A stretch of 64,000 nucleotides of DNA. Origin: an uncultured Planctomycetia bacterium. Its GTDB lineage: Bacteria > Omnitrophota > Gorgyraeia > 2-01-FULL-45-10 > JAHFGN01. The position numbers and the translations under genes are program-made. A model generated the notes under the pieces. That model searched no databases and was not told where the DNA came from. It was given only the letters and a program-made list of their open reading frames with translations. Position 1 is the stretch's first letter. The number at the start of each line of letters is the position of its first letter. Shown here piece after piece: positions 6,039 to 56,175 of this stretch. Location: assembly GCA_964354545.1 (NCBI GenBank), contig CAYHAE010000001.1, positions 65,190 through 129,189 of the forward strand. The letters are read 5' to 3'.

Positions 6039-6039
6039 A

Positions 6040-9208: not shown

Positions 9209-9221
9209 AAAATTTAAGCCT

Positions 9222-12264: not shown

Positions 12265-12385
12265 TTTCAACGCAGATTCTCGCGGATTTCCTGCCCGACG
12301 GCAGGCGGGCACGCAGATACTCGCAGATATCTGCGTTAATCTGCGTTTGATTCGCGTCTATCTGCGTTAACGCATGGTTTTTTAA
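12265..12385. promoter_or_regulatory. cluster of at least six CGCAGAT/ATCTGCG half-sites, including the perfect palindromes CGCAGATATCTGCG and GCGTTAACGC
   Basis: Read directly in the 217-bp intergenic region upstream of the HD-GYP gene. Confidence 0.45.
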
Positions 12386-24452: not shown

Positions 24453-24677
24453 GAAAAGAGCAGGGCTGACCATCGCGATGTGTGAGAACAGTGGATGCGC
24501 ACGATTTAAAGCCCCAGGCAGCGAGTGGTCCTGCGAAAAATAAAAGAGATGGTCAGCTCATTTCGCGGGACTCTCCTCTCTGGGGTTCTTTTTTTGTTTC
24601 GCGCCGCTTGGCCAGGCCGTCTCGCAAGAGCCGCCTGGCCGTTTTATTTTTGTAGTGAGCTGATCAATGAGGCTGCC
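24453..24677 (+). promoter_or_regulatory. structured 5' leader with long-range inverted repeat and terminator-like hairpin plus T-run
   Basis: GCTGACCATC at 24465-74 pairs with GATGGTCAGC at 24548-57. Hairpin GGCCAGGC...GCCTGGCC at 24609-39 is followed by GTTTTATTTTT, immediately before the ATG at 24678. Confidence 0.4.
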
Positions 24678-27600
24678 ATGGACAGAATGAGGTTTTTCCC
24701 TTTGACCAAAATCATCTCGATAGCGCTCGTCTTTACCCTGCTTAATCAGCAGATACTTTTTGCCGCGGATTACTCCTACGGGATTCCGGTCGAAAACGAA
24801 AAGAACCGCTCAGGCTTTATGTCCGTGGATGAGCTGGATAAGGCCCAGCGTCGCCAAGAGGAGCTTATAGCGAGGCTCCAGGCATCTCTTGATAGTAAGC
24901 TCTCAGGAGGCGTGGGGGATGAAAGTGAGTGGACGCTCCAAAGGAAGAGCGGAACCTCATCCGAAGGGCAGGACTCTGCGGTCACGCCATCGGCACAAGA
25001 CCAGACAGTGCCTCTTGAGGTTTCTCAAGCGGAGATCACCGTGACGACCGCAGCAGGTGATCATATCGCATATTCCGGTGGTGCGATCGCGCGGATCGAG
25101 CAACCGAACGGCACTATCATCGAAGATGTCGTACTGACGCCTACAGGCGAACTTGAACGTGGGCTCATCCGATTCGTGGACGGCGGCGTGCTTACGATAG
25201 AGGGGGGACGGGCATGCTCGTATTTGGGTCCAGACGGTACCGCTACCCACTATCGTCAGGATGGGCTGGTCGATTCGGAAGTCACACCTGACGGCCTTGT
25301 ATCATATTACTCATACCTCTTTGATGACGCAGGGTCGATTGCGCGAACGACTATAACCAGGCCCGAGGAGATCATCGAGTACGACGAATCAGGTAGGCTC
25401 TCGAAGGTCACAAAGCTTGATGGCACGGAGATCGGGTATGAGAACGGCATAATCTCTCAGATGACGAAAGGAGACGGGTCGAAGTATGTCTTTGGCAGGA
25501 TATTGAACGGTCCTGATATAGAGGTAAAAATCGTTACCTATTTTAATAATTCAGGGTACCGGGTTGACTTCGACAGCGTATACAACGTGGTCTCGGTTAC
25601 ATCGCCCTCCGGTTCTTTCACGAAATACGGACATGATCGCACGCCGCTCTACACGCGAAAAGACAATGCGTTGATTGCATACGACAACACCGGCCAGATA
25701 GCATATGCGATCTGCGGCGTTACTGGCTTTGATGGCACATACCGGCAAGGCCAGGATGGATATATAGCGGTCCCGCTCGCGACCATTGACGAGCTTGCGC
25801 GCGCTATAGAAGATCTAGATAGTGCGGCACGGGCTCTCGCAGATGCCGAAGATGCATGCGCAAAACGGCAACTCGAGCTTACCGAAGCAATGCAGTTTTC
25901 AGCACAGACCTTCCAAGCATATCAGGAAGCGGACACTTCGGCCCAGCAGGCCGAGACTGCGCGGCGCGCAGCTGAAGCAGCTCTTATGAGTACACTCGTT
26001 GACGTAGAAACACAATTCGCGTACGGAGACGACGTTACGGAGATTGAGGACCAGAAGGTCGTGTTGAGAGAACAATTTGGGATCTTCAATACGACCCTTT
26101 GGTACAGGACAAGTTCGGCGTACGCACAATGTACTTCGGGCAGACTCTTCCTTTGCGGGACAGGCACCGACACGCGAGCCCATGTCCATTATCAAAAGAC
26201 ATTCGGCGAATACACATTTGCCCGGATGGGATTCGACTTCAAAGTCGATTCGCTCACCGGATCTTTTAAGGCAGGACTTCAATCCGCGTCTTCGAGTACC
26301 TCCTTCGGGAACTCGCTTCAGACAGCATGCATCGAGGTCCGCGAAGGCAAGATCTGTATTGACATTGTCCAGGGCCAGCTTGAGAACCAGCCGACGGCGG
26401 TACTGTTACCGAAGGTCAATACGGACTACTCATGCCTATTTGAGTTGAAGAACGGGTATTTAAATATCTATGTCTGGGAGAAGGAAGAAGTAAGGCCTGC
26501 GGAGGCGCTCTATTCATTTCGTACGCAAAACTGGCCCGGCCTGCGGCCCTTTTTTGAAGTCCGCTCGGGATGTGCATGGGTGGGCAATGTTATGTTGCAC
26601 GCGCCGCTTGATGATCGGATATATGATGTAAAATCGCAGCTCGCAGGACGAATGTCGTATCACGACGATTATGCCACAAGATATGAGTATAGACAGGCTG
26701 GCACATCAACGCTAACTGATCTCGATACATTCAATCGGTTGACCAGACTCTGGGAATCAGGCAGCAGTGTAACATCCGGTCGGGCAAATGTCAGTTTGAG
26801 CGGACTCCGAATGAGGTCGTATCTGCCGCGAACGATTGACCAGACCTATTCGTTCGATTTTGCTCTTGGTACAGTTTATTCAAATGCACGGGCAGGGCTC
26901 GAAGGGAAGGAGGCCACAGGAAACGGATATCTCAGGTTTGTCGTGCAATCAGGTAGATTGTCGGTTGTGACTGTGTGCAACGACCACGAAAAAACAGTGG
27001 CGGTTTCACCGGAGCAGTTTCTGCCTCTCCAGCAGTACACCGCTCAATTTGAGGTAAAGGCAGGCGCTATAGACGTCTACGTATGGAGAAAAGGGGATGA
27101 CCGGCCAGCTATTCCGCTATACAGCTTCACAGATCCTTCATGGAGCGCCCTGCGGTTCTACGCGAAAACAGACAGCGGTCGCTTTGTCATCGATGAATTC
27201 TCCCGTACACAAACATGCGGCGCAACCGGCCAGGAAGCGGATACTGTGGTTGCGCACCTGCGCGATATGTTCGACGCTGAGCGATCGGCGATCGTAAACC
27301 GCGAGGATGCTCGCGGTCGCTATGAGGCAGCTCTCACACAAGAGGGGCAGGCTAAAGATGCACTCACTATCGCGGAGAATGGGCACGCATCTGCGCTTAC
27401 GCAAGAAGAGCAGGCGCTGCATGCTCTGGAAGGTATTAACGGCGCCTTGAATGTGCCAAGGGTTATCCCCGATCAGCCTCTTTTCTACGAGACCTGCGAT
27501 CGCGTGATCCAAGACATGCCGGCAGTTGTGCTATATATAAATGAGAATTTCGCGTCCGAGGCCGGGATTTCCTACGTCACATATTGGCAGAATGGTCTCC

Positions 27601-30600
27601 CGAAAGAGGCGTGCAAGTTCGACGGCTCGACCGTGACCTTCGATGAAGAAGGCGCGCTCCTCTCGTTCAAGGGCCAGATCATCGATGCTTCGTACGCAAG
27701 CATCCTCGGGCCTTGCAAGTCTGTTACGGGGGAAAAAGTCGTTAGGGATGGGCTGACGCGGATCTATGACGCCCGCGGAAAGCTCTCCGCGCTGATGACC
27801 GGCGAAAATACTCACATCGAATATCGCGAGAATGAGATCGTTTCGATCGCGACCGGGGATGGTGTCAAGCGTCTCTACGAAGCTGGTACGCTGACAGAAC
27901 TGATCGATAAGGACGGGGCGACCTTCTCGTTCGACGCGTCTGGAAAGGCAGTGAGGTCGGTAGACCGTTTCGGGAACGTCTACGATTACGCATATGGGTA
28001 CGATCCCGTCGACGGAGAGGAGACGGTGATCATCTTCGAGGAGACCACGGGCCTCAGGCGGTTCTATAAGAGCGGGGTTCTCTACCATACAGAAGACCTT
28101 GCAGGGGTTACCTCTGACAATCTTTATGATGCGGACGGACGGCTCACCGAGGTGCTTATAAAGAATTATGATACCGTGGTCGGCCGATATTCGTACACAT
28201 ATCTTGATAGCGGAAAGACCGGCGTTAGTGATCTCCTCGGCAACACGAGAACCTATGCCTGTGACGGGAGACTGGAAACCTTGGTCGACAAAGATAACAA
28301 TGTCTTCCAATACACCTATCCGGATTCCGTGACGACCCGGTTGGATTGGGTGCCGTACGAGGCGCAACAGGCGCCGGCAGCAGATTTTGTGATCGCGCAG
28401 GAATTCGTGAACGATGCTCTTCGTAAAGTCGTCAGGGCAGATGGAACAGTAACGACCTATCGGGTTGGTGGAGACCTCGATTCTATACAGGAGGGAAGCG
28501 GGAAGACCATCATTCAGTATCTCTACGATGAAGCGGGAGAGCTTGAAGGTGTAGATCTCAGGGGAAGCCGCGAAGACCTATCGCGAGCCGTACAAGATGC
28601 GCGCACTGAGATCGAGGCGGAAAAGAATAATACCATTAAAAAGATTGAGACTCAAAGAGATAGTGCGTTGTCAAATATATTTAACCAATATGTTCCACAA
28701 TTTCTTGCTCTATTCAATCAACTATCTACGCTTTCCGATCAATTGAGTGCATTGACAGGCCATAGTTATGGCATTTTTTTCGAAGTCACCATCGCTCAGC
28801 ATATAGCGGGTTTGGATCCGGCAGATCCAAACATTCCCATAATAAAAAGTCTCGTGCAGCAACTACAGGATGTAAATAATCAGCAACTTGCGCTTCTTGC
28901 GCAGAAGGCTGCAGAGCAAAAACCGATCGAAGACGAGGCGACGCGGCAAATTGCCGAGATAGAGCGTCAGGCAGATCAAGAGGTCGCAAAGATCGATGCC
29001 CAAATTGGGCTACTCTCACTAGATATATCGAGGAGAGAAGGAGCCGCCTTCGTCCTTTACTATCACCGAAAGATACTTGGCAGAGACCTTAGCAGACCAG
29101 AAGCGGATGCCTGGGTATCACAACTGTCGGCAGACAAGCAGAAATTCACCCGTGAGGAGGTCGTAGGAACGATACTCTCTTCGGCAGAATATGCCGACCG
29201 GAAGGCATGGGTTGCGTCTATTAAGAAGTCAGTTCGCCATGCGCTCGAGGGATATCTGTTGATGACAGAGCAGGAAAAGGACACGTTCCTGGTTATGCTC
29301 GGCCTCTCTCGACAGGATGCGGCACGACTCAATCGTTATGATGTCGAAAAGATCCTCTCCTGGATCGATTCTCAGGGACTCCATTTCGGGCAATCGGCAT
29401 TCCTCGCGCTCAAGAACGTACTCGAAGCGAACGGCGTGGTGTGCGATCTTGAGGATCTTGCGATAAATGCCATCCTTATCGATATACTATCCGGCGCGAT
29501 CGATTCGCTCGCAAAGGGCGATCTCGCGCTTTCTATGTTCGCGCTGAGTACCTGTGCAAGAACCAAGGGCGTAGCGCTCTTCAATGCGAAACTCATATGG
29601 GAAGATATTGCCCAGCTTCCGTCGCCCAGGTTCATTGCGCTCGTCGATGGCAATCACTATATCGTCGTCACCGGCGTCGAAGGTGATGAGGTCTATTACA
29701 GGGAAGAGAACAGAGGGCCAGCCGGTACCGACGAGGTGATGACGAAAGACGAATTCATTAAGACGTGGTCGGGATATGCGATTGTAGTACAGGCCAAAGG
29801 TCTTTCTCTTACTGAACCCATCCCGGAACCTATCGCGTCGAAACTGATAACTTCCCAAGAAGCTCGCGCTGTTAAGGGTGCCTGTATAGGTCTCTTTGTT
29901 GCATTCGTCATTTGGGCCGTCTCGGCCGTCCTTACGGTTGTTGCGACTGTCGCATCAGTGATAGCGACAATCGTAACAACTGTGGTGAGTGCAATCGCTG
30001 CGGTTGTGTCGCAGTTCGCGACCGTAATTACCGCGCTTGGTGCGAAGCTTGTAAGTGGTATTTCCACGGCGTTTACAGGGATCGGGCAAATGATAGGCAG
30101 TGTGGCAGGGGCTTCCATTGCGAGCATGGCCACTGCCGCGTTGAAGACGGTGGCGAGCATTGGTTTGAGCTTTGGCATCTCAGCGGGTTTGAAAGCGCTC
30201 GGTGTCAACACAACCATTACAAATCTGACGAGTGCGTTTCTTACGGGAGGGATCCTTGGCCTGATCAATCCTGTTGCAGGTATAAGCATGCTAGGATCGT
30301 TTATGATGGAAGGGATGAAATATGCCACGATTGCCGGCATCAATGAAGCCGGCGTTGCGCTCAGGCTCGACCCGGCCATCACGAACCTCATGGCGATCAC
30401 CTCAGGGGCCCTCGTCGGCGGCGTCTGGCGCGGCAACATTGGACAAACTCTCGTTACCATCGCGCCGAGCGTCGCATCCGAGGCCGCATATATAGGTATG
30501 CAGAGCGTTGGCAACCTCCTCGGCATCGATCCGCGGATATCCTACCTTGCAGGAGTGGGTATTAGAAGCACCCTAAATGCGGGCCTGACCCACGACTTTA

Positions 30601-33068
30601 TGCCAGATGTTATCTGGGGTGGGGTGCAGAGTGGGCTGCTACGGGGGATTACCTCAATAGGCATTAACTATGCTACTCAGGAATTGGGCATAAACCCGTT
30701 TATTGCCAACCTGTCGGCTGCTGCCATGGCAGGTGGCATAGAAGGCCTGTTAGAAGGCAGGAATCCCATAGAAGGCATATTTGACACTTATTTTAGAGCA
30801 GGAATAGGCCTATTGACGCTAGGGGGCGATGGAGGCAATAATCCATGGCTTAGAGCTGCTTATATATCCCAAGTATTAGATTTTAGTCAAATTATACAGG
30901 AAAGGGGTATAGTTAATGCGCTTGATACATATGCAACAGGCTTCTTACACCAACAGACGATTAATGAGATATGGAAGCAAGGAGGCATTGCCGAATTGCT
31001 TACAAAACCCAATCAGATTGAAATAACGACCAATAATAAAGGCGAAGTTGTGAAGCGAATATACACAATGGTGATTAATTCGAATTCCGATAAACTTATA
31101 AGTAACTATATAGACCTGTCACCTACCTACGATATGCTTGTCGGATACAGAGAGGGCAATATTATCACCCATTGTGAATTCGTGATTGGTCCAGATGGCA
31201 GACCTCAATTGAAGAATGGCGAAAAGGAGATTCTTGGTTCAGACGGTTCAAAGAAAGTAGACTATGTTGAAAACTTTAACCTAACAAAGAGAGATATTAT
31301 TGATCCAAGTGGCAATAAGACAGGTTATTATATCCCAGTCGAAGGAACAAACTCCATTATAATTGGAGAAAATGACCAGATAATAAGTGGTAAATTCGTG
31401 TCTTTGGTGAGCAACTATAATATAACATCTAAAGATGGCTCTCTATATGACTATACAGGGTCAGAATTGATAGGTATAGATAGTTATTTTCTTGAAGATT
31501 ATCTTGGATTGGACGAAGACGATGATTTACAGCTTGATGATATCTCGATTAACATCAGTAAATTAGATTTAGGATATGATGTATCAGTAGGGTTAGTTGA
31601 TCCTACCAAGCAAAGCGATTTAGACGCGCTTAGTGCTGTATACAAGGTAGCCTCATTTATAAAAGATACATATTTACCCGCTGGCTTTATTACAAGTGAA
31701 GACCTTAATTTGGATGGATATGGTTATATAGAGCACTCTTATGGTAACAATGTCTATGCTGTTATTGACATAGGGAGTGGCTATAAACCAGTAGAAATGA
31801 ATTATAATGGATTACACTTAATAGGGGATAGAGACAAGGTTGGCATCGGGCAGAGTCTAAATCCAAATGGTTATACGAGCGTTATTAATGGAGAAGTGCG
31901 ATACGATATAGATGCAAATACATATTTAACAGCCAGAATTGATAATGGCTTACCGACATCTATCAAATATAATGGTTCTACCGATATGGTTCAATATGAA
32001 GGTTCATATTTTACAGATGGAACGTTAGATAGTGGTGAGTTATTAATAGCAGGACGGGATGTTATTATAATTCAAGACGGAATTCCTACTTTGAGGTATA
32101 ATGTAAACAATCCGAGCGGTTCGCTTACAAGTATTGACTGCGAGGGGTTAATATCGCTTTTTACAAATATACAAATACAGAAAGGTCAGGTTAGCTTACC
32201 CGGTATTTACAACGCTCTTATGAATTCACCGGAAGCAGATTTTACAGCATATGCAAATGAAATATTTAATGCTCGAAACCTGTTAAGCTCAGATGGCATG
32301 CTTTCGTATAATGAGGCAATAGCTATTTATTGTAATAGCGAAAATGCCATGAATGCCGAAGAGTTTCTGAATATATCTAAATTATATTATACATTGAGAG
32401 ACCCAGTAGCCGTTTACCTAAATCAATTCTTCCATCAAGTAACTGATGAAGTCAGAACAAAATTTGACGATTCTTATGCACAACTATCCGGATATAACTC
32501 TTTAGATGGCTTCTCTTATATTATGGAGAGCGGTTCCAAAACAGCGGGCATAGGTCAAATTAACAAAGACGGCCTAAGGGTTTATTCTATTATAGGAGTA
32601 AGTGCAAATATGAGCGAAAAGATATTCAACCCCTATGTGAAATTTTTTGTTAATTTTACAACAAATAATGAAGTAACCGATATGCTTCAACCTTTAGTCG
32701 ATTATAAAACTATACCCGGTATAAATCACGCTTATCAGCCCGAAGATATTTTCCGCAATCCAACAAGTGATAAGCAGGTGTGGAATGTCGAATTTGATGA
32801 CATTGAAGTTAATTCTACATTATCACCAGTAAAGGATTATATGCATGTTGACTATGCACGAAATACAGACCATCCTTATCATGAGATTTTTGTTGCATTA
32901 TCAGCGGCTGCTGAAATTGCAGTGTATGATGGCGGAGAAACATTCAAGTCAATTATTATGAAAGCAAAAGGATTTACCGATGGCAGCTCTCTAAATCAAT
33001 ATCTTCAACAGAATGGTAGGAAAATAGACATAGGTATCGATGACAATGATAGATGGAAGCAGAATTAG
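24678..33068 (+). CDS. giant secreted YD-repeat (Rhs-like) protein (2797 aa) with signal peptide, an internal tandem roughly 250-aa duplication, a coiled coil, a papain/C39-like region, a Gly/Ala/Ser-rich hydrophobic region and a compositionally distinct C-terminal region
   Basis: Signal peptide MDRMRFFPLTKIISIALVFTLL. YD-type repeats are present (YDESGRL, YDNTGQI, YDARGKL, YDADGRL, YxYLDSGKTG). Duplicated modules are NIYVWEKEEVRPAEALYSF and DVYVWRKGDDRPAIPLYSF. A DGNHYIVVTGV motif is present. The last roughly 2.2 kb are AT-rich. Confidence 0.75.
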   Translation: MDRMRFFPLTKIISIALVFTLLNQQILFAADYSYGIPVENEKNRSGFMSVDELDKAQRRQEELIARLQASLDSKLSGGVGDESEWTLQRKSGTSSEGQDSAVTPSAQDQTVPLEVSQAEITVTTAAGDHIAYSGGAIARIEQPNGTIIEDVVLTPTGELERGLIRFVDGGVLTIEGGRACSYLGPDGTATHYRQDGLVDSEVTPDGLVSYYSYLFDDAGSIARTTITRPEEIIEYDESGRLSKVTKLDGTEIGYENGIISQMTKGDGSKYVFGRILNGPDIEVKIVTYFNNSGYRVDFDSVYNVVSVTSPSGSFTKYGHDRTPLYTRKDNALIAYDNTGQIAYAICGVTGFDGTYRQGQDGYIAVPLATIDELARAIEDLDSAARALADAEDACAKRQLELTEAMQFSAQTFQAYQEADTSAQQAETARRAAEAALMSTLVDVETQFAYGDDVTEIEDQKVVLREQFGIFNTTLWYRTSSAYAQCTSGRLFLCGTGTDTRAHVHYQKTFGEYTFARMGFDFKVDSLTGSFKAGLQSASSSTSFGNSLQTACIEVREGKICIDIVQGQLENQPTAVLLPKVNTDYSCLFELKNGYLNIYVWEKEEVRPAEALYSFRTQNWPGLRPFFEVRSGCAWVGNVMLHAPLDDRIYDVKSQLAGRMSYHDDYATRYEYRQAGTSTLTDLDTFNRLTRLWESGSSVTSGRANVSLSGLRMRSYLPRTIDQTYSFDFALGTVYSNARAGLEGKEATGNGYLRFVVQSGRLSVVTVCNDHEKTVAVSPEQFLPLQQYTAQFEVKAGAIDVYVWRKGDDRPAIPLYSFTDPSWSALRFYAKTDSGRFVIDEFSRTQTCGATGQEADTVVAHLRDMFDAERSAIVNREDARGRYEAALTQEGQAKDALTIAENGHASALTQEEQALHALEGINGALNVPRVIPDQPLFYETCDRVIQDMPAVVLYINENFASEAGISYVTYWQNGLPKEACKFDGSTVTFDEEGALLSFKGQIIDASYASILGPCKSVTGEKVVRDGLTRIYDARGKLSALMTGENTHIEYRENEIVSIATGDGVKRLYEAGTLTELIDKDGATFSFDASGKAVRSVDRFGNVYDYAYGYDPVDGEETVIIFEETTGLRRFYKSGVLYHTEDLAGVTSDNLYDADGRLTEVLIKNYDTVVGRYSYTYLDSGKTGVSDLLGNTRTYACDGRLETLVDKDNNVFQYTYPDSVTTRLDWVPYEAQQAPAADFVIAQEFVNDALRKVVRADGTVTTYRVGGDLDSIQEGSGKTIIQYLYDEAGELEGVDLRGSREDLSRAVQDARTEIEAEKNNTIKKIETQRDSALSNIFNQYVPQFLALFNQLSTLSDQLSALTGHSYGIFFEVTIAQHIAGLDPADPNIPIIKSLVQQLQDVNNQQLALLAQKAAEQKPIEDEATRQIAEIERQADQEVAKIDAQIGLLSLDISRREGAAFVLYYHRKILGRDLSRPEADAWVSQLSADKQKFTREEVVGTILSSAEYADRKAWVASIKKSVRHALEGYLLMTEQEKDTFLVMLGLSRQDAARLNRYDVEKILSWIDSQGLHFGQSAFLALKNVLEANGVVCDLEDLAINAILIDILSGAIDSLAKGDLALSMFALSTCARTKGVALFNAKLIWEDIAQLPSPRFIALVDGNHYIVVTGVEGDEVYYREENRGPAGTDEVMTKDEFIKTWSGYAIVVQAKGLSLTEPIPEPIASKLITSQEARAVKGACIGLFVAFVIWAVSAVLTVVATVASVIATIVTTVVSAIAAVVSQFATVITALGAKLVSGISTAFTGIGQMIGSVAGASIASMATAALKTVASIGLSFGISAGLKALGVNTTITNLTSAFLTGGILGLINPVAGISMLGSFMMEGMKYATIAGINEAGVALRLDPAITNLMAITSGALVGGVWRGNIGQTLVTIAPSVASEAAYIGMQSVGNLLGIDPRISYLAGVGIRSTLNAGLTHDFMPDVIWGGVQSGLLRGITSIGINYATQELGINPFIANLSAAAMAGGIEGLLEGRNPIEGIFDTYFRAGIGLLTLGGDGGNNPWLRAAYISQVLDFSQIIQERGIVNALDTYATGFLHQQTINEIWKQGGIAELLTKPNQIEITTNNKGEVVKRIYTMVINSNSDKLISNYIDLSPTYDMLVGYREGNIITHCEFVIGPDGRPQLKNGEKEILGSDGSKKVDYVENFNLTKRDIIDPSGNKTGYYIPVEGTNSIIIGENDQIISGKFVSLVSNYNITSKDGSLYDYTGSELIGIDSYFLEDYLGLDEDDDLQLDDISINISKLDLGYDVSVGLVDPTKQSDLDALSAVYKVASFIKDTYLPAGFITSEDLNLDGYGYIEHSYGNNVYAVIDIGSGYKPVEMNYNGLHLIGDRDKVGIGQSLNPNGYTSVINGEVRYDIDANTYLTARIDNGLPTSIKYNGSTDMVQYEGSYFTDGTLDSGELLIAGRDVIIIQDGIPTLRYNVNNPSGSLTSIDCEGLISLFTNIQIQKGQVSLPGIYNALMNSPEADFTAYANEIFNARNLLSSDGMLSYNEAIAIYCNSENAMNAEEFLNISKLYYTLRDPVAVYLNQFFHQVTDEVRTKFDDSYAQLSGYNSLDGFSYIMESGSKTAGIGQINKDGLRVYSIIGVSANMSEKIFNPYVKFFVNFTTNNEVTDMLQPLVDYKTIPGINHAYQPEDIFRNPTSDKQVWNVEFDDIEVNSTLSPVKDYMHVDYARNTDHPYHEIFVALSAAAEIAVYDGGETFKSIIMKAKGFTDGSSLNQYLQQNGRKIDIGIDDNDRWKQN

Positions 33069-33083
33069 TAAAATGAGGACAAA

Positions 33084-33674
33084 ATGAAAAATAAAATATT
33101 GTTAATTTTGGCAATACTTTTAGCAATAATTATCATAGCAGGATTTATGATATTTGAGTTTTTACCAAAGACTTATTGGTCACCGTCATGGCAATATGGC
33201 CTACGTGAGCAAAAAAAGCATCAAGTGACAGAGGAGTTTATCAACTTATCCACGGACGAGCTGATAAAACAAATCGATTTAAATAAAGATCGGAAACAAT
33301 ATAAAGGTGAAAAAGGAACTTTTAAATCTATAAAATATGAGGTTAGCATTAGTTTATTAGGCTCAAGAACCGATGAAAAAGCTTTATCGAAGCTCAAAGA
33401 AATTATTCTAACCTTTCCTGAAGGTCAAAAGTGGACTGCAATTTCTGCTATTCGTAAGAGCAAAAATAAAGCCATGATTCCAGTTCTTTGTGAGGCACTT
33501 AAAAAGCACACGTTGCATCATACTGACGACCTTATAGTTAAAGCCCTTGTAGATATTGATGACTCAGTTGCACTTGATTGTCTTATTCAAGAAAAAGACA
33601 AGCTTTCATATAGAACCTCTCGTGAGCTAGCAGGAAAAGCCATTGAAAAATGGAGCCACGAGAAAGCTCAATGA
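33084..33674 (+). CDS. membrane-anchored HEAT-repeat-like protein (candidate cognate immunity/accessory protein)
   Basis: N-terminal TM helix. HEAT-like repeats (WTAISAIRKSKNKAMIPVLCEALKK, DDLIVKALVDIDDSVALDCL). It starts 16 nt after the giant gene. Confidence 0.45.
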   Translation: MKNKILLILAILLAIIIIAGFMIFEFLPKTYWSPSWQYGLREQKKHQVTEEFINLSTDELIKQIDLNKDRKQYKGEKGTFKSIKYEVSISLLGSRTDEKALSKLKEIILTFPEGQKWTAISAIRKSKNKAMIPVLCEALKKHTLHHTDDLIVKALVDIDDSVALDCLIQEKDKLSYRTSRELAGKAIEKWSHEKAQ

Positions 33675-33675
33675 G

Positions 33676-33806
33676 AAATCTCCGGGACGGTTACAAAATC
33701 TATCCCTGCCTGCCGGTAGGCAGGCCAGACGCGCCCTAAATTCCATCCCAGACCCATCCCCGAATTTCATCCTATATAGAACCTCCAGGGCGTTTACAAA
33801 TTCTAC
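33676..33806. repeat. cassette-punctuating GC-rich element, copy 1 (with internal hairpin insertion and duplicated head)
   Basis: CTCCGGGACGGTTACAAAATC...CCAGACGCGCCCTAAATTCCATCCCAGACCCATCCCCGAATTTCATCCTATATAGAACCTCCAGGGCGTTTACAAATTC read directly. Confidence 0.7.
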
Positions 33807-33845
33807 AAAATGTAAGGAAGAGAGATTAGAGAGATGTTAAACTAG

Positions 33846-33872
33846 GCAACCCAGGAGGTGGGTTGCTTTTAT
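33846..33872 (+). terminator. rho-independent terminator
   Basis: Hairpin GCAACCCA-ggagg-TGGGTTGC followed by TTTT. Confidence 0.5.
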
Positions 33873-33965
33873 AATTGGTGAAGTCAAATATGAAGATATC
33901 GATTTTATGAAGTAAAAGATGAGAATAGATTGGATGCCAGAAGATATTTTGAGGGTCCTAGAGGG

Positions 33966-34274
33966 TTACTTTTTTCCCTCTCGTGTAAGCCTAAATTCCA
34001 TCGACTTTCTTGCTTCAAAATAGATTTTCGAAATTAACTTATGCCGCTCTTCCACTTCACTTTTGTCCGCGGTAAGCCGACTCAGCTTCTTCAATAGGTC
34101 ACTCTTTTCAAAATCGGGCTTGTTTCTAGGGAATAACCTGGAGTTCGTATCTATCGTTTCAATGCAGATCATCAATCGTAATACCTCAGAGAAGCTTAAA
34201 TCGTACTTTTCTCCAAGGAACTTTATATAATCACTGATCCAGTCCTCAAGAAGCACTTGCTGCCTTTTAAGCAC
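33966..34274 (-). CDS. hypothetical protein (102 aa), reverse-oriented in the cassette region
   Basis: ORF only. Its codon usage fits the AT-rich island. Confidence 0.3.
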   Translation of the reverse strand: MLKRQQVLLEDWISDYIKFLGEKYDLSFSEVLRLMICIETIDTNSRLFPRNKPDFEKSDLLKKLSRLTADKSEVEERHKLISKIYFEARKSMEFRLTREGKK

Positions 34275-34615
34275 AATACCCTCCTTGCTAGTATCATAAT
34301 GATATCAGAAAGCGTTTAACGGCACAATAACAAAATGGCTCATTTATTACACATATTTACTACACACTTTTATTGTTGACAAATAGGTGAATAAATATTA
34401 GGCTATTTATTGTCGGAAGAATCCCATTAGAGAAGATGTTTGATATTAATCAAAAATTATTTAATAACGAGATTAAATATATCTCAATGAGATCTGGAAA
34501 TGAATAAAGTAATTCGCAATAAGATGCTGTGGATTGTGTATTTTTTAGTAGCCCCCGTAATTGCGTTCATATCATTTATAGTTTCAAGAAAAGATTTATG
34601 AAAGGGAGGTATCGT

Positions 34616-35230
34616 ATGCGTAAACTTATAACATGTGGTTTAATTGTTTTGTTTTGTACCTCTATTACAGGTTGCGCTACTATTATGACTGGAACAACAC
34701 AAAAAATACCAGTCTCATCCAATCCGTCTGGCGCTAATCTGCAGGTGGATGGACAGAGTACATATACAACTCCCGTTACGGTGGTTTTGGAAAGAAAAAG
34801 AGACCATATTCTGGTATTTACAAAAGAGGGATACAATCAAGCGACGATAACGATTCTTCATGTCTTAAGCGGAGCAGTGTGCGGAAATATTTTATTAGGT
34901 GGTTTAATTGGATTTGGTGTTGATGCATGCACTGGTGCAATGAATAAATTAGTACCTGAGAATGTTCAGGTTGAACTGCAGAAAGCAGCTCCGGGCGCAT
35001 CTGCCCCAGTCGCAATCAAGGAATTAACCCCCGAAGATAAAATTAACCAGTTAAAAAATATGTACGACAAAGGCATGTTGACTAAAGAGGAATATGAAGC
35101 AAATAAGAAAGTTATATTATATCAAATGTCACAACAGGGAGTACTCGAAGCTCAAGGTGCTGCGGTCACCCAAAATAAACAAGAAAACATAAGTACCCAA
35201 GCGCCGCAGGGTGACTTGGGCACTAAATAA
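34616..35230 (+). CDS. lipoprotein with C-terminal SHOCT domain
   Basis: Lipobox LFCTSITGC. SHOCT-like C-terminus INQLKNMYDKGMLTKEEYEANKKVILYQM. RBS GGGAGG. Confidence 0.55.
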   Translation: MRKLITCGLIVLFCTSITGCATIMTGTTQKIPVSSNPSGANLQVDGQSTYTTPVTVVLERKRDHILVFTKEGYNQATITILHVLSGAVCGNILLGGLIGFGVDACTGAMNKLVPENVQVELQKAAPGASAPVAIKELTPEDKINQLKNMYDKGMLTKEEYEANKKVILYQMSQQGVLEAQGAAVTQNKQENISTQAPQGDLGTK

Positions 35231-35237
35231 TTACGAG

Positions 35238-35326
35238 AACCTCAGGGACGTTTACAAAATCCATCCCAGACGCGGTCCTAAATTCCATCCCAGCCCCATC
35301 CCCGAATTTCATCCTATATAGAACCA
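35238..35326. repeat. cassette-punctuating GC-rich element, copy 2
   Basis: CTCAGGGACGTTTACAAAATCCATCCCAGACGCGGTCCTAAATTCCATCCCAGCCCCATCCCCGAATTTCATCCTATATAGAACC. Confidence 0.7.
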
Positions 35327-35531
35327 CCTCCTTTCATTATATAAGACGTACGAGGAGCAGGAATTCTTGCAAAAAAAGTATCAAAAGGGACAGGTCTGAG
35401 ATAAAATATGAATACAGGTCTGAGATGAGAAATAGGGATAGGGCTAAGATGAAAAATGATAACAAGTTTAATCTCAAAAATGAAAACGTTCCACAGTTAC
35501 GTTTTCCTATTAATAGTTATGGAAGTATAAT

Positions 35532-36371
35532 ATGCCATTAGTTAGAATACCCAATTCAGAGTCAGATATTCTTACCGCAATTTCTCCAATTCTCGTGTGG
35601 AACGATGATAAAAATCCTCGCATTGTTGGTACAGCAGTTTTGTTAGGGCCTGGATTAGCTTTATCAGTACTGCATGTTATTCAGGATTTTGTTCCTAAAA
35701 ATAAGTGTACAGATGAGATAAATGCTAACGTTGCTATATTCCAAGCCTCATCAGGGGCAGCATGGTATATCAGGAGAGTTTGGGCCACAAGCCATACTGA
35801 TGCTGCTTTCTTGGGTCTTGAGCCTAAAAATGATGCAGCTAAAAATTATAAATGGCACCGCTTTGGAATAAATCTCCATTTACCAAAACCCGGAGAGAAG
35901 ATTTTTGCTGCTGGTTTTCCTTGTTCTAAAATCAACGGTGTTGATGAGGGGCTTACTCAAAAAGGAATAACTGCTATAAAGGTCAATTTAAATCTTCAAA
36001 CTGTAAGTGGAATCGTACAGGAATCACATGGTTCCAAGCACGAAGGCCATTTAGATTTTCCTTGCTTCCAGTGTAATGCAAAATTTGATCCACAAATGAG
36101 TGGAGGGCCAGTTCTGGATGAGAGCGGATATTTGCGCGGCCTTGTATGCACAGGATTTGATTTTGCTGACGCAGGTGAGCCTGTTTCCTTTGCCGCAGGC
36201 ATTATGCCTACTATGGCGATTAAGATTGATAGGTCTTTGCCAAGCCTTGACAAAACTCAGGAATATTATGTTCTTGAATTGGCAAAGAATGGTTTTTTAC
36301 CTGTAATCGGTTATGAAAGAGTTAAAATAACAGAGCTTAAAAATGGGAGGACTAGAATCGAATTGAGGTAA
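35532..36371 (+). CDS. trypsin-like (S1/chymotrypsin-fold) serine peptidase-like protein without signal peptide
   Basis: His in SVLHVIQD, Asp in HTDAAFLGL and Ser in QMSGGPVLD match the His-Asp-Ser order and the GDSGGP-type motif. Confidence 0.5.
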   Translation: MPLVRIPNSESDILTAISPILVWNDDKNPRIVGTAVLLGPGLALSVLHVIQDFVPKNKCTDEINANVAIFQASSGAAWYIRRVWATSHTDAAFLGLEPKNDAAKNYKWHRFGINLHLPKPGEKIFAAGFPCSKINGVDEGLTQKGITAIKVNLNLQTVSGIVQESHGSKHEGHLDFPCFQCNAKFDPQMSGGPVLDESGYLRGLVCTGFDFADAGEPVSFAAGIMPTMAIKIDRSLPSLDKTQEYYVLELAKNGFLPVIGYERVKITELKNGRTRIELR

Positions 36372-36373
36372 TA

Positions 36374-36455
36374 GCCTCCGGGACGCTTACATAATCCATC
36401 CCAGACGCGTCCCTAAATTTTATCCCACAGGTCCTGAGATGAAAAATAGGGATGG
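36374..36455. repeat. cassette-punctuating GC-rich element, copy 3 (compact palindromic form)
   Basis: CTCCGGGACGCTTACATAATCCATCCCAGACGCGTCCCTAAATTTTATCCCACAGGTCCTGAGATGAAAAATAGGGATGGGGCTAAGAT. The arms GGGACGC/GCGTCCC and TCCCTAAATTTTATC/GATGAAAAATAGGGA are inverted. Confidence 0.7.
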
Positions 36456-36895
36456 GGCTAAGATCATTGTTTTATAGAGGAGGTGCAGTGGAGAAGCAAA
36501 AGTCTGTTGGGATAACAATTCTCGGATGGCTCGGTTTCTTGCTAGCCATAGTGAATCTCGCAATTTATATATTTCTTCTTCTTGTTATGGGTATTAGATG
36601 GCAAATAGAAGTGGTTGCCAGATTTCTAAGAGGTAACCCACAGGCGTTAAGTTTAATCTGGACTAATTATTCGCCGTTAGTATTAGGTTTTTTACTAATT
36701 TATATCGGTAGATTCTTATTAAAGAAAGCCAACCTAATATTCATAAAAAATGTAACGGTCACCTACCTTGTGTTAAGCGTTGTCTTTCTATTTATCAATA
36801 TCTCCTCTCTCCTTATGGCTTTCTATAACTTAGCATATTTTGTCTTGCTGTTAATCGTAATAGATCGCCCAAAATTCAAGGAGCAGTTTAAATGA
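36452..36895 (+). CDS. small polytopic membrane protein, unknown function
   Basis: Four hydrophobic helices. It overlaps the next gene by 4 nt. Confidence 0.4.
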   Translation: MGLRSLFYRGGAVEKQKSVGITILGWLGFLLAIVNLAIYIFLLLVMGIRWQIEVVARFLRGNPQALSLIWTNYSPLVLGFLLIYIGRFLLKKANLIFIKNVTVTYLVLSVVFLFINISSLLMAFYNLAYFVLLLIVIDRPKFKEQFK

Positions 36896-38673
36896 GAAAA
36901 ATATTGCATTGCTTGTTGATTTTATATCTGGTATGTGCAAATTCTGTATATGCACTGCAGAAAGGCAATGCAAAGCCGGGTGAAACAATAAGCATTGACC
37001 CCGGCAAGACTACAAAATCGTATGTCAGTGATAAGCTAGGGGAGCCATATCTCATTAAGACGATAGATGGTAAAGAATGCTGGTTTTTTGAGAGCGGCGA
37101 TAATAAGACACAGCCATTTTTGGTTAATGAAAAGACGGTTATATTTATTCAGTTTAACGACAAAGGAATAGTTGAAGATAATTACAGCACAACAGAGAGC
37201 GGTATTCCTCACATAAAAACAAAATCATTGGAGCAGGTCTTGAAGGAGAAGAAAGAGGAAGAAGAAAAGGATGCAAGATGGAGGCAAAATCGCAATACTT
37301 ATGGAAAGCCAGACCAAGAGTCTCGTGATGGAACAGGCGAAACGTGGTATTACATTATAAGCAAAGAACCGACCGATAAGAAAGACACGAATAAGGTGAA
37401 GATGAAGGCAATACGGTTTGACAAATCTGGTAATTTTGTGAAAGAGTGGATGACAAATGCAGTGCTATTTGAGCGAGCACTTACATCAGAAGAGCAGAGC
37501 AACTTCGATGGGGATAGTATACTTAAAGAAGCTCGTCTCCAGACGAGAGAGGCGGTTCGAGACTTGGTTATAGGCGACGCTAATGCCGCCTATAAACAGG
37601 GCTCCGATTTGAATGATGCGAAGCGATATGACAAGGCTATCCCGTGGTTCAAGAGAGCATTAGAACTTAACCCGAAACTTGCTATGGCACATCTGGGGCT
37701 GGCATTTGCTTATCAAAATACCAATCAGAGGGATTTATCCATTCAGTCTTATGAGAATTTTATTGAACTTGATCCAACCTATATGGCGGCATATCTGAAT
37801 CTATCCGCTCAATATATGCTAAAGAACGATATATACAAAGCATACAAGTGCCTCAAAATGGCTCAAACATATAACCAGAATGATAATACCGTAAATAATG
37901 CTATTAAGGCGTTAGAGGGAAGGTACGGAGTGGCCTTGGCGGTATCGGAGCAGGTAGAAAAAGACAAATCTCACTCACAGGTTATTCAGGCTGGCAATCT
38001 TGTATATGTGGGACCTTCATATTATAAAGAAGGGCAGGTTCCTATAACATCTACTGAACAAAAAGTTTTTGATGAGTATAATAGTTTTATCAAAGAATTA
38101 GAGAAGACCAAGCCCCTCGAAGCAGAAGGAAGGAAAATGGTACAGGAAAAGTTTATATCGTTAGCAAATAAATACAATATGACACAACAGAATCTAACAT
38201 TATTATTACTCAAGATCGCATACAGAGAAATTCCACCAGATACTTATGTCCCACCATCAGAAAATCCTATTGATACGAACGATGTAAACAAGGATAAATA
38301 CGAGGCTATGACACCTGAGGAACGAACAGCAGTTGTGAAGGATTGGAACGCAGAAACAGACTCTGAAAAGCTTCAGCAGAAAGCTCTAACGGCTGAAGCA
38401 AGAGGTGATTACAAGAATGCCATGAATTCATATAAAGAGATATTAACATTAAAAGAGATACAAGATGATTTAGTGCCTATGATACACTCGGGATTGCAGC
38501 GGTGCTATGAAAAATTGAAGGATGCAACCAATGAGAAAACGGAATTAACCTGGATTAATGATTATGTACTTGCTCCCGCAGGTAAGTATAATCATATGGT
38601 TAAATATTTTACAAATACGGTAAAGAACTATCTGAGAGAAAGAATGGCAAGGTATGGCATAAAGCCGAATTAG
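36892..38673 (+). CDS. secreted TPR-repeat protein
   Basis: Signal peptide MRKILHCLLILYLVCANSVYA. TPR repeats (AIPWFKRALELNPKLAMAHLGLAFAY..., ENFIELDPTYMAAYLNLSAQY...). Confidence 0.6.
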   Translation: MRKILHCLLILYLVCANSVYALQKGNAKPGETISIDPGKTTKSYVSDKLGEPYLIKTIDGKECWFFESGDNKTQPFLVNEKTVIFIQFNDKGIVEDNYSTTESGIPHIKTKSLEQVLKEKKEEEEKDARWRQNRNTYGKPDQESRDGTGETWYYIISKEPTDKKDTNKVKMKAIRFDKSGNFVKEWMTNAVLFERALTSEEQSNFDGDSILKEARLQTREAVRDLVIGDANAAYKQGSDLNDAKRYDKAIPWFKRALELNPKLAMAHLGLAFAYQNTNQRDLSIQSYENFIELDPTYMAAYLNLSAQYMLKNDIYKAYKCLKMAQTYNQNDNTVNNAIKALEGRYGVALAVSEQVEKDKSHSQVIQAGNLVYVGPSYYKEGQVPITSTEQKVFDEYNSFIKELEKTKPLEAEGRKMVQEKFISLANKYNMTQQNLTLLLLKIAYREIPPDTYVPPSENPIDTNDVNKDKYEAMTPEERTAVVKDWNAETDSEKLQQKALTAEARGDYKNAMNSYKEILTLKEIQDDLVPMIHSGLQRCYEKLKDATNEKTELTWINDYVLAPAGKYNHMVKYFTNTVKNYLRERMARYGIKPN

Positions 38674-38710
38674 CACCCCTTGCAGCTTATCGTTTTATAG
38701 CGTGACCCAG

Positions 38711-38765
38711 AAACCTCCGGGACGTTTACACGTTCCATCCCAGATCCACCCCCGAATGCCCATCG
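38711..38765. repeat. cassette-punctuating GC-rich element, copy 4 (right edge of the AT-rich island)
   Basis: CCTCCGGGACGTTTACACGTTCCATCCCAGATCCACCCCCGAATGCCCATCG. Confidence 0.65.
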
Positions 38766-38845
38766 CTTGCTAATTCTTTCCCCCCGGAGTATAATGTGTA
38801 CGCGCCACAGATGACCAGTGCGCATATCAAAAAAAGGGGGATCGC

Positions 38846-40519
38846 ATGAAACGATTGGCCGCCACTATTTTAATATTGTTCTTTTGTTCGAAGACCGCAG
38901 TATGTCAGACAGAAGAGGGCGTCTCCTCTACCATCAAGGCAGTGACGCTCTTTCCCTATCAGGCCCTTGTAAGCCGGGAGGCGTCTCTCAAGGTGGGCAA
39001 GGGGCCCCAGAAGGTCCTTCTCGATGTCCAGGCGTTCAACGTCGACAAGGACTCGGTCTCGGCGGCGGTCTTCGGCGACGGAGAGGTCGTGGGAGTCCAG
39101 CTCAAGGACAAGTACCTCACCGAGATGCCTCAGCCGGCGATCAGGGAGCTCGAGAAGAAGCTCGAGGAGCTGAAGGATTCGCGCAAGGCCTTAGAGCGCG
39201 CAAGGACCGTCTCCGCGAAGAAAGAAGAGTTCCTCGACGGGATCGTGAAGTTCTCTCAGGTGCAGGTGCCCCAGGAGATGAAGACCTCTTTCCCCAAGCC
39301 CGAGGACCTGACCAATACGCTCACGTTCCTCGGAACGAACTTCACGCAGGTCTACAAAGAAAAGGACGGTCTGGATATTCAGCTTCGGGAGATGGACAAG
39401 GAGATCGAGCGTGTCGCGAATGAGCTCGAGGCAGTCCGCGGCCCTGCCGACAAGGCCAAGAAAGTCATAGAGATAATATTCGATTCCAGGAAAGAGCAGG
39501 AGATCAGGATCGACGCGAGCTACCTCGTCTCGTACGCGGGGTGGGAACCGCTCTACAGGGCCGATGTGCCGGAAGGCCTCGGCACGATCGGGCTTACCAT
39601 GTTCGCCTCGTGCGGCCAGACGACGGGCGAGGATTGGAAGAACGTGCGGCTTACCCTGTCGAATGTCGCGCCCCTTATGGGGGGCGGCCTTCCTGATCCG
39701 GGCATGTGGGGTATTTCCATCGTACCAAAGGCCCCGCCGCCGTCCCGCTCGAGAGAGATGGCCATGTATAAAGCCAAAGCAGTGGTGGCGGATTATGCGA
39801 CAGCGGATTCCGAGGCGGGTGGCATAGGAGGAGCCGAAGAATATCCGGTTAAAGAAGAGGCGTCATATGCAGTCGCCGGACGCGCGGAAACGCCGCTCTC
39901 GTTCGAATACCTCCTCCCCCAGGCCCTCGATATCCTCTCGAGGGAGGAGCACTCGATCCTGCCCGTCATCACGAAGAATATAAAAGGCGAATATTTCCAT
40001 TTTTCGGCACCCCAGATAAGCTCGCTCGTCTTCCTCGTGTGCAGGGCGCAGAGCGACCGCGAGCTTCTCAGCGGCATGCTCAATATCTATTTTGGAGGAA
40101 GGTTCGTCGGCAAGGTGACGCTCGACGAAAAGAAGCCGGGAGAACCGTTCGACATCCCGCTCGGCGCAGATCGGCAGGTCACCGTAAAGCGCGAAAAGGT
40201 CCTGGATAAGAAGGACGAGACCTTCATCGGAAAGATCGAGCGGATGACGGTGATACGCACGATGGTCTTTAAGATCACGGCAGAGAACGCGAAGGACAAA
40301 CCGGCGACGCTTCTCCTGATCGATTCGGTCCCCGTATCCTCCACCGATAAGGTCGTCGTGAAAGACGTGAAATTCTCCATCCCGCCCTCCGAGAAGGATC
40401 ATCTCGGCAGGGAAGGTGTCATGCTCTGGAAGATCGCCCTCGGGCCGCGCGAGACAAAAGAGCTTACCGTGGAGTTTACGGTGACGTACCCAAAGGATGA
40501 GACCATCGCCGGCCTGTGA
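38846..40519 (+). CDS. secreted DUF4140/DUF4139-type (MuiA-like) protein
   Basis: Signal peptide. N-terminal pattern AVTLFPYQALVSREASLKV. Coiled-coil middle. Very GC-rich. This is a family resemblance only. Confidence 0.5.
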   Translation: MKRLAATILILFFCSKTAVCQTEEGVSSTIKAVTLFPYQALVSREASLKVGKGPQKVLLDVQAFNVDKDSVSAAVFGDGEVVGVQLKDKYLTEMPQPAIRELEKKLEELKDSRKALERARTVSAKKEEFLDGIVKFSQVQVPQEMKTSFPKPEDLTNTLTFLGTNFTQVYKEKDGLDIQLREMDKEIERVANELEAVRGPADKAKKVIEIIFDSRKEQEIRIDASYLVSYAGWEPLYRADVPEGLGTIGLTMFASCGQTTGEDWKNVRLTLSNVAPLMGGGLPDPGMWGISIVPKAPPPSRSREMAMYKAKAVVADYATADSEAGGIGGAEEYPVKEEASYAVAGRAETPLSFEYLLPQALDILSREEHSILPVITKNIKGEYFHFSAPQISSLVFLVCRAQSDRELLSGMLNIYFGGRFVGKVTLDEKKPGEPFDIPLGADRQVTVKREKVLDKKDETFIGKIERMTVIRTMVFKITAENAKDKPATLLLIDSVPVSSTDKVVVKDVKFSIPPSEKDHLGREGVMLWKIALGPRETKELTVEFTVTYPKDETIAGL

Positions 40520-42565: not shown

Positions 42566-42624
42566 AAGGGGACAGGCGTGATCTTAAAAATGAAAACGTC
42601 CCAGAGAAATGCGAAGGAGGGTGT

Positions 42625-49214: not shown

Positions 49215-49558
49215 ACGGCGCGCCATTTATCCGCCCCCCACGGCTCCGGCCGGATCCGTTCCTGCCTGCCCTGCCTGCAGGCACGGCAGGCGCTCCGGCA
49301 CGTTTTTGTTTTAATTTATTGTGCCGGAGGGTATACTATAGAACATAGCGCAGAACAGGAGAGAGGGCAAGAGAGGCAAAAGTCAACGCTTTAATCCCCT
49401 CGCAGAAATCCCCGGGTTTTAACCCGGGGATGAATGCGTTTCTGCTCGGGGAGGGAGCCTAAAGAAAAGGGGCTATAAGACAGCGAGCGAGATTACAAAA
49501 AATGAAATGGGACCCTGGCTTTCAAGCCAGGGGGCTCCACTGAGGGCGGGGGGAGAGA

Positions 49559-56139: not shown

Positions 56140-56175
56140 CCTGCCTGCCGGCAGGTGCTTCGGGGAGGGAGCATC
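56140..56175 (+). terminator. GC-rich hairpin terminator
   Basis: CCTCCGCACCTGCCTGCCGGCAGGTGCTTCGGGGAGG inverted repeat. Confidence 0.4.

Follow-up and report, generated by a model that had tools for sequence, protein, structure and literature searches.

Introduction

Repetitive extragenic palindromes (REPs), the REP doublets forming hairpins (REPINs), and the REP-associated tyrosine transposases (RAYTs), whose genes are flanked by the repeats, have been defined previously (PMC3337134). Neisserial intergenic mosaic elements (NIMEs), made up of dRS3 and RS arrays, are non-coding repeat arrays located beside the variable surface or toxin genes pilS, mafB, and fhaB; they have been proposed to promote recombinational swapping of neighboring genes, and the end points of recombination lie inside the arrays (PMC1797815). 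Here, we report a short intergenic repeat (hereafter, the element) downstream of a giant gene in a 64,000-nucleotide stretch of an uncultured bacterium (assembly GCA_964354545.1, contig CAYHAE010000001.1, positions 65,190 to 129,189), which we call the window and whose coordinates are used throughout. The closest homologs of the giant protein and of the flanking DUF4139 gene all belong to Candidatus Omnitrophota, and the window is chromosomal, encoding GroEL, LeuRS, IMPDH, and fatty-acid synthesis genes. Omnitrophota are uncultivated, ultra-small bacteria noted for giant genes.

The element is best read as a mosaic intergenic repeat that is non-coding and restricted to its lineage, with a forward type that trails stop codons and a diverged inverted type that precedes the next gene. 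In this reading, its copies mark the joints of gene blocks accumulated where the DNA is hypervariable and AT-rich, 3' of a giant gene that is polymorphic (RHS/YD-like and C39-containing). The element is repeated DNA and is neither a coding sequence, an integron attC site, nor an intrinsic terminator; it is absent from the homologous loci of relatives and coincides with synteny breakpoints. As for its nature, we tentatively favor a junction repeat of the class formed by REPs, bacterial interspersed mosaic elements (BIMEs), and NIMEs, spread by duplication or mobilization, with a RAYT-like enzyme as the candidate.

Copies and anatomy of the element

We located the copies with an nhmmer profile of the copies and with a second model built from the forward copies alone. 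As a null, 6,294 windows were drawn from the 64 kb, and the inverted arms were scored against copy B to avoid circularity. The profile identified four forward copies on the plus strand: copy A at 33677–33780 (E = 5e-19), copy B, the most complete, at 35238–35322 (E = 2e-23), the two-unit copy C at 36373–36430 (E = 1e-15), and copy D, which has one 24-nt unit fewer, at 38712–38760 (E = 2e-10). These are essentially the places where a first-pass annotation of the sequence had put four direct copies. The forward-only model recovered all four (E = 1e-14 to 1e-19), together with a truncated 26-nt restart, A2, lying head-to-tail with copy A at 33780–33805 on the plus strand (E = 0.0049); the alignment score of A2 to copy B is 17, which no null window reaches. 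Two diverged inverted copies lie on the minus strand, namely Binv at 35392–35463, upstream of an open reading frame (ORF) for a trypsin-like protein (empirical p = 0.004 against copy B), and Cinv at 36430–36470, fused to copy C (p = 0.0005). Their arms (35417–35450 and 36431–36464) have scores to copy B that are equaled by only 0.4% and 0.05% of the null windows, respectively, so the imperfect complementary arm previously noted upstream of the next ORF is real. Furthermore, two occurrences each were counted for the 32-nt consensus (at most three mismatches) and for the 34-nt complementary arm, where shuffles predict 0.00. The best other null windows were short matches within conserved enzyme genes. 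The repeat is real, far beyond chance, and all real copies fall within 33.7–38.8 kb; the remaining 58 kb of the window hold none that is significant. A third inverted copy considered after a reverse ORF (33909–33960) scored at the null mean and was rejected. A weak element-like stretch (CTCTGGGACGTTTTCATTTTTAAGATCACGCCTGTCCCC) on the minus strand at 42568–42606, between two GC-rich genes, was not significant (nhmmer E = 0.064); it may represent a solo copy that has decayed, or simply chance similarity.

All copies are extragenic, lying between ORFs. Each of the four forward copies shares the orientation of the ORF upstream and begins 3 nt (A, after the gene for a HEAT-repeat protein), 8 nt (B), 2–3 nt (C), or 39 nt (D) past its stop codon. 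The element does not, however, follow every ORF, as had been claimed, but only four of six: no significant copy follows the reverse ORF, and the ORF of a small membrane protein overlaps the start of the following tetratricopeptide-repeat (TPR) gene. Copy D stands at the right edge of the AT-rich block (30.75–38.8 kb, 30–42% GC), where GC rises from 0.45 to 0.61, in agreement with the earlier placement of the fourth copy at a composition boundary.

The unit of the element measures about 84 nt and comprises three C-rich sub-repeats, each some 24 nt long. A forward copy runs from AGAACCTCC through three such sub-repeats (...GGGACGTTTACAAAATCCATCCCAGAC; GCGTCCCTAAATTCCATCCCAGCC; CCATCCCCGAATTTCATCCTATAT) to a second AGAACC, which is the beginning of the next unit, and its ends are direct repeats (AGAACCTCC / AGAACCACC), not inverted ones. 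Each tandem sub-repeat carries a TCCATCCCAG-like box (repeat-family spacing, 24), and TTAC is invariant across all five left ends despite variation in the preceding base. Pairwise identity among the copies, in both orientations and two subtypes, is 68–96% over 52–53 nt, and among the variants are one truncated restart, one copy with a unit deleted, and one with a nested insertion. The inverted arms are a subtype of their own, in which C of the forward copies is replaced by T in the reverse complement; when their 34-mers are compared directly, Binv and Cinv agree at 31 of 34 plus-strand positions. Forward copies have 49–59% GC and a C/G ratio of 1.8–2.9, with copy B at 2.9 and a 78-nt window in it peaking at 4.6, which ranks second in the entire window; inverted copies have 35–42% GC and a C/G ratio of 0.25–0.31. 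Compared with the GC content of the block, these values bear out the description of the forward copies as GC-rich within an AT-rich island. The internal arms described as GGGACG/CGTCCC hold only in part: the pair GGGACGC/GCGTCCC is perfect in copy C alone, is imperfect in copies A and B, and is missing from copy D.

The nested insertion in copy A is a 20-nt perfect GC hairpin, CTGCCTGCCGGTAGGCAGGC, at 33705–33724, and excising these 20 nt restores the TCTATCCCAGAC box. Since its kin lie in three other intergenic regions, a host-type hairpin has landed inside copy A. This small GC-rich family, CCTGCCTGCCGG(Y)AGGCAGG-like and intergenic throughout (12290–12305, 33705–33724, 49270–49285, and 56140–56155), gave 8 strand-matches against 0.3 expected, with at least 2 members directly after stop codons, and its resemblance to a classical REP is closer than that of the 90-nt element.

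We scored the folding of RNA and single-stranded DNA, on both strands, as z relative to shuffles. The label "palindromic" does not suit the single copy: copy B folds no better than shuffles on the plus strand (RNA z = +0.86; DNA z = +0.59), and its plus-strand RNA is unusually unstructured (−7.9 kcal/mol per 95 nt). As RNA, z on the plus and minus strands was −1.93 and −1.67 for copy A, −1.47 and −0.72 for copy D, and −1.35 and −2.55 for copy C with its inverted arm; minus-strand z was −1.92 for copy B alone, and the 225-nt composite of B and Binv gave −1.07 and −2.76. As single-stranded DNA, minus-strand copy B scored −0.89, copy D −0.38 (plus) and −0.23 (minus), and the composites B/Binv and C/Cinv −0.96 and −1.37. 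DNA values were thus not significant (z = +1.03 to −1.37), except for copy A (−2.3), because of its nested 20-nt hairpin. Hairpins arise solely where forward and inverted copies adjoin, and they are weak; the B and C sites pair in different registers, so there is no single conserved structure, and the copies are too few for a covariation test. The minus strand folds better because G–U or G–T pairs stand in for the C–A mismatches of the plus strand, and this fits a strand-specific, single-strand substrate.

Giant gene, relatives, and breakpoints

The giant gene (24525–33068, plus strand) encodes 2,847 aa with a C39-like peptidase domain, a long hydrophobic stretch, and, as seen by eye, YD/RHS-like repeats. 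Relatives carry this C39 and pre-tip core alongside RHS repeats, Ig domains, or ILEI domains. When the last 770 aa were used as the query of an exhaustive search, residues 1–235 proved common to dozens of Omnitrophota proteins of 2,500–3,980 aa, whereas residues 235–770 had only a handful of matches. The gene therefore has a conserved pre-tip domain (approximately aa 2078–2312) and a variable C-terminal tip, which together occupy its AT-rich 3' end (30750–33068, plus strand). The tip is followed by its partner gene, encoding a membrane-anchored HEAT-repeat protein (33084–33674, plus strand; Pfam HEAT_2). In the relative L034 (GCA_016935115.1), the HEAT gene follows a different tip and is only 25% identical to that of the window. 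The features that characterize a polymorphic giant protein, namely a conserved domain, a variable C-terminus, and a partner gene that co-varies with the tip, are all present here; in the relative L030, this tip is co-inherited with this HEAT gene. GC drops from approximately 0.55 to approximately 0.37 at 30.7–30.9 kb. This drop starts within the conserved pre-tip domain (30474–31329, 74% nucleotide-identical to L034), so the AT-rich composition extends beyond the variable tip.

We compared the region with homologous loci. In L030–L033 (JGI), the tip and HEAT gene (75.6% nucleotide identity over 31105–33655) are followed by PhdYeFM/ParE toxin–antitoxin genes; in L034, homologous giant, HEAT_2, and BamE/TPR genes are followed by a RAYT-like gene with inverted repeats; and in L035, a different tip and a HEAT_2 gene are followed by unrelated small ORFs without repeats. 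The element is absent from all of these, and no repeat families were detected in the downstream arrays of L034 and L035. In fact, the DNA to the right of the tip–HEAT pair differs in every relative found. Homology stops about 20 nt before copy A in L030 and about 12 nt before copy D in L034. In the latter, the BamE/TPR genes share 50% identity over 329 aa, and homology continues about 30 nt past the stop, to 38699. Both mappable breakpoints thus lie at the left edge of a copy, within approximately 10–25 nt of copies A and D, and beyond a copy the homology to the relative does not resume. The element was either gained in the present lineage or lost in the relatives; it is certainly repeated non-coding DNA. 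The locus of the closest DUF4139 neighbor (L029, 66% aa identity) was not syntenic and did not contain the element. After the L030 HEAT gene, a relic suspected by eye scored 6–9, equal to the null, and was rejected.

These comparisons also bear on the genes between the copies, which had been described as five unrelated ORFs. Recurring beside the giant-gene family in relatives, the HEAT and BamE/TPR genes are conserved members of the locus rather than random cassettes, so the description fails for these two; the genuinely extra genes here are the reverse ORF, a PEGA/SHOCT lipoprotein, the trypsin-like protein, and the small membrane protein. Similarly, the first-pass suggestion of recombination junctions in an orphan toxin/immunity array survives only in its broader form, that of a variable region with repeat-marked joints, which is supported by the variable tip, the differing downstream DNA, and the breakpoints at copies A and D. 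The orphan array itself fails in its defining feature: tblastn of the giant protein against the window found only the gene itself, with no piece of its conserved region downstream. As a separate observation, the tip–HEAT pair of L030 is followed by two toxin–antitoxin-like pairs (2731–3863; PhdYeFM/ParE and another), each preceded by the same 18-nt operator-like repeat, TATAGTGTATACTT(T/A)TAT.

We investigated the wider distribution of the element with a degenerate 18-base core, GGGACGNTTACANNNTCNATCCC, which matches all four copies. Scanning of GTDB species genomes and metagenome contigs gave 12 genome-contig and 11 metagenome-contig matches, none extending past the 23–24-nt pattern, and their number is near the chance expectation of approximately 17 (18 fixed bases, 596 Gb, both strands). 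This search of genomes and metagenomes, which the first-pass annotation had suggested, thus yielded no genuine copy outside the locus. Two element patterns had 0 matches among viral contigs, a distant-mode search of a plasmid collection returned no match, nothing relevant emerged from Rfam up to an E-value of 1, and six-frame translations of the element found no similar peptide or spurious ORF among 5.8 billion proteins. Exact-protein look-ups for the genes of the AT-rich island returned only short, window-collinear Logan contigs from two runs, ERR3804373 and ERR3804374. The contig breaks at 33782, 35296, and 35324 are explained by 31-mers common to copies A and B and are therefore no evidence for extra copies. 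So far, the element has been seen only in the present Omnitrophota bacterium.

A RAYT-like gene at the equivalent position in a relative

In L034, a 221-aa RAYT-like Y1 (HUH) transposase and a 122-aa ORF are encoded between 39-nt inverted repeats (JAFGRN010000064.1, 22184–23378). The transposase gene stands directly after the TPR gene, inside the same AT-rich block downstream of the giant and HEAT genes. Its product has HUH (HVH) and Y motifs and scores 72 bits against NF047646 (the NCBIfam model of REP-associated tyrosine transposases) versus 17 bits against IS200. The top match of the element profile in 29 kb of L034 falls at the left of the 39-nt inverted repeats, where TCTGGGATAATAAATAGGGACAGCG agrees with TCTGAGATGAGAAATAGGGATAGGG of the window at 20 of 25 ungapped positions and has the same orientation relative to the enclosed genes; of the whole locus, the inverted repeats together with their flanks account for roughly 1%.

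Because such a gene, with an element-like left repeat region, occupies the equivalent position in L034, we propose a RAYT-like mobilizer. The copies would have arisen through duplication or mobilization of a non-autonomous element, and the most plausible mobilizer would be an HUH transposase (Y1, RAYT-like) that is specific for single strands and whose gene lies elsewhere in the genome. Once placed, the copies could serve as portable homology at which blocks may be gained, lost, or swapped.

Comparison with described systems

The element resembles the REPs and BIMEs of Pseudomonas and Enterobacteria in being extragenic, often just 3' of genes, and in forming inverted doublets that may fold into hairpins. 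In BIMEs, Y and Z units alternate in orientation, and the two subtypes of the element do so likewise. A possible further likeness to the REP/RAYT system is the RAYT-like gene between inverted repeats at the equivalent position in L034. However, the arms of the element are tandem 24-nt sub-repeats without a palindromic core of about 20 nt, its 4 + 2 copies all lie within 5.1 kb, whereas REPs number in the hundreds and are dispersed over genomes, no RAYT is present in the window (tblastn), and the similarity to the L034 repeat region is just 20/25. The extragenic position is shared with REPs and the inverted doublet perhaps loosely so, while the palindromic core and the dispersed high copy number are not.

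NIMEs offer a different parallel: both are non-coding repeats beside variable genes, with GC-richer and AT-richer segments alternating. The element nevertheless has no sequence relation to NIMEs and lacks their dRS3 motif (ATTCCCN8GGGAAT, 0 matches with at most one mismatch), comes from a different phylum, and separates whole genes, whereas NIMEs form long repeat-only arrays. Like miniature inverted-repeat transposable elements (MITEs) and the IS200-IS605-derived palindrome-associated transposable elements (PATEs), the element is a short non-autonomous repeat with inverted parts and with truncated and nested copies. It differs from them in that the outer termini of its forward and inverted arms mismatch, the inverted arms matching inner units of the forward copies and not the CCTCCGGGACG end, and in that no target-site duplication was seen when the copy flanks were read directly; it thus has no terminal inverted repeats of the MITE type.

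The giant gene itself recalls the Rhs, contact-dependent inhibition, and MafB systems, with a conserved region of a giant secreted-type protein, a variable tip of lower GC, a small partner gene changing with the tip, and a variable downstream region. Conversely, there are no downstream orphan tip fragments with conserved pre-tip sequence, and no known toxin domain was found in the tip with Pfam, defense-system, phage, and solved-structure libraries; the HEAT protein is only a putative immunity partner. The last three of these libraries were uninformative for the tip and the cassettes alike, the sole exception being that the protease domain of RT-Protease_XI was weakly matched.

Alternative explanations

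The two orientations and subtypes, the truncated and nested copies, and the RAYT lead support a selfish REP/BIME/MITE-like repeat. Several findings weigh against the reading that we tentatively favor. The 64 kb encode no transposase or recombinase; the copies lack the approximately 20-nt palindromic core that defines REPs, and they are not dispersed, with none in the other 58 kb; and the shared orientation with the upstream ORF (4/4), with three starts at most 8 nt from the stop, is tighter than random selfish insertion would give. As single-stranded DNA, no copy or composite significantly beats shuffles, hairpin-bearing copy A aside. The L034 match is not significant (nhmmer E = 0.14), and an equal score of 15 arises by chance in the unrelated L029. 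The RAYT link, striking by position only and noticed post hoc, is suggestive as a lead. We note that the selfish-repeat reading, junction sites, and a role at the RNA level are mutually compatible.

It is possible, though rather doubtful, that the copies are dedicated cassette-junction recombination sites, either as anchors of homologous recombination with incoming DNA, along the lines suggested for Neisseria NIME arrays, or as substrates of a site-specific recombinase that stacks modules of an ORF and an element. The close attachment of all four forward copies to the ends of like-oriented ORFs (3/4 starting 2–8 nt past the stop), the restriction of the copies to the variable block with the last one at its edge, and the coincidence of both mappable synteny breakpoints with copies all argue for such sites. 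So does the lack of homology past a copy, whereas simple insertion into syntenic DNA predicts that homology resumes. The invariant TTAC, retained at the five left ends next to a variable base, points the same way, and NIME arrays beside variable surface and toxin genes provide a precedent (PMC1797815). However, the window encodes no recombinase, the variable downstream arrays of the relatives carry no such repeats, the HEAT and TPR genes are conserved at the locus and not mobile, and the cassette proteins were found in no other arrangement, the exact look-ups having given only window-collinear contigs from two runs.

A related idea, which we find improbable, is a non-integron gene-capture array in which modules of an ORF and its 3' element would have been stacked downstream of the polymorphic giant gene by a single-strand-specific HUH (RAYT-like) or other recombinase. 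The enzyme would then act at a core such as the invariant TTAC, and in Omnitrophota the repeats would do the work that attC does in integrons.

We likewise give little credence to a role at the RNA level, according to which the forward copies are Rho-loading (rut-like) or insulating 3'-untranslated modules that would terminate or buffer transcription behind each gene, and their repetition reflects the copying of a working module. With a C/G ratio of 1.8–2.9, the copies agree with what is expected of a rut site (at least 70 nt of C-rich, G-poor, unstructured RNA past the stop), an agreement that concerns composition only. In particular, the C/G ratio of the mRNA strand reaches 4.6 in the 78-nt window of copy B, copy B is unusually unstructured, the copies begin right behind stop codons, an intrinsic-terminator-like site follows copy A, and a promoter-like site of the next gene follows copy D. 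Such a role leaves the inverted and restart copies, the confinement to a single block, and the coincidence with breakpoints unexplained, and rut sites normally show no sequence conservation. The copies are not intrinsic terminators themselves, as a scan for a GC hairpin followed by a U-run found only a site at 33844–33868, outside the element.

Integron attC sites in a cassette array are very improbable, even though the first-pass annotation had compared the element to them. The likeness to attC and to the Vibrio cholerae repeats is superficial: an ORF is followed by a 60–130-nt repeat with some dyad symmetry, in a uniformly oriented array. Every feature tested speaks otherwise. Core sites (RYYYAAC...GTTRRRY) were not found by regular expression in 33000–39000 or in each copy on either strand, there is no single-site palindrome and single sites do not fold, the copy ends are direct rather than inverted repeats, and neither IntI nor any other recombinase gene was found in the 64 kb. 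In fact, a domain search of ORFs of at least 150 aa gave no integrase, transposase, or recombinase, which upholds the earlier statement that none is seen in the window. There is a negligible chance that the element is translated, either as a small peptide from the minus strand (MKFGDGAGMEFR...VNVPE) or as an extension of the upstream proteins by read-through. Copy B does have an open 29-codon minus-strand frame, but this is shifted in copy A, lacks a start codon in C, and is another frame in D; on the plus strand, A and B are in different frames with respect to the stop codon upstream; none of 5.8 billion proteins is similar; and a reading frame that is not conserved between copies makes the element non-coding.

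Three other candidates were rejected. A G-quadruplex on the G-rich minus strand is not conserved, since four G-runs with loops of at most 12 nt were read only in copy A. A promoter within the element is not indicated by any sigma-70-like site in the forward copies, and the regional count of promoter-like sites equals that of shuffles. Finally, a shufflon or a diversity-generating retroelement does not apply, as the giant gene contains no copy and no reverse transcriptase domain occurs in ORFs of at least 150 aa in the window.

As a lineage-specific version of a well-known type of feature, with a mechanism that is proposed only, the element is of moderate interest. The locus is a testable example of a conserved giant-gene body with a swappable tip and partner gene and with repeat-separated downstream blocks at breakpoints. 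If a RAYT-like enzyme or another recombinase does use the repeats, NIME- or integron-like exchange would reach a new phylum and a new enzyme class; if the repeats are merely selfish or terminators, the finding is an ordinary one.

Neighboring genes and other observations

Between the HEAT gene and the right edge of the block lie a 102-aa reverse ORF (33966–34274, minus strand; no family match), the PEGA/SHOCT lipoprotein (34616–35230, plus strand; Pfam PEGA and SHOCT), for which the same start is called in the Logan contigs, the trypsin-like protease without a signal peptide (35532–36371, plus strand; Pfam Trypsin_2), the small multi-pass membrane protein (36488–36895, plus strand), the 3' end of which overlaps the TPR start codon, and the BamE/TPR lipoprotein (36892–38673, plus strand). 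Of the PADLOC model RT-Protease_XI, the trypsin-like protein covers the protease part only (E = 1e-5). On the plus strand, the site at 33844–33868 after copy A is an intrinsic-terminator-like hairpin with a T-run, and a strong promoter-like site (TTGCTA-17-TATAAT, 38767–38795) abuts copy D and faces the GC-rich DUF4139 gene.

A second AT-rich block (5000–10000, GC 0.31–0.38) is free of the element; it contains nitroreductase, amine-oxidase, and acyltransferase/methyltransferase genes, and fatty-acid synthase genes adjoin it. An AbiEii-type toxin gene (type IV toxin–antitoxin) and an upstream ORF that overlaps it occupy 21306–22704, approximately 1.8 kb from the giant gene on its upstream side. 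Additionally, the window encodes three paralogous HisKA_7TM-GAF histidine kinases (9222–11357, 16833–18905, and 19081–21162), the latter two within a tandem duplication of approximately 2.25 kb, and a homologous kinase adjoins the giant-gene locus in L034.

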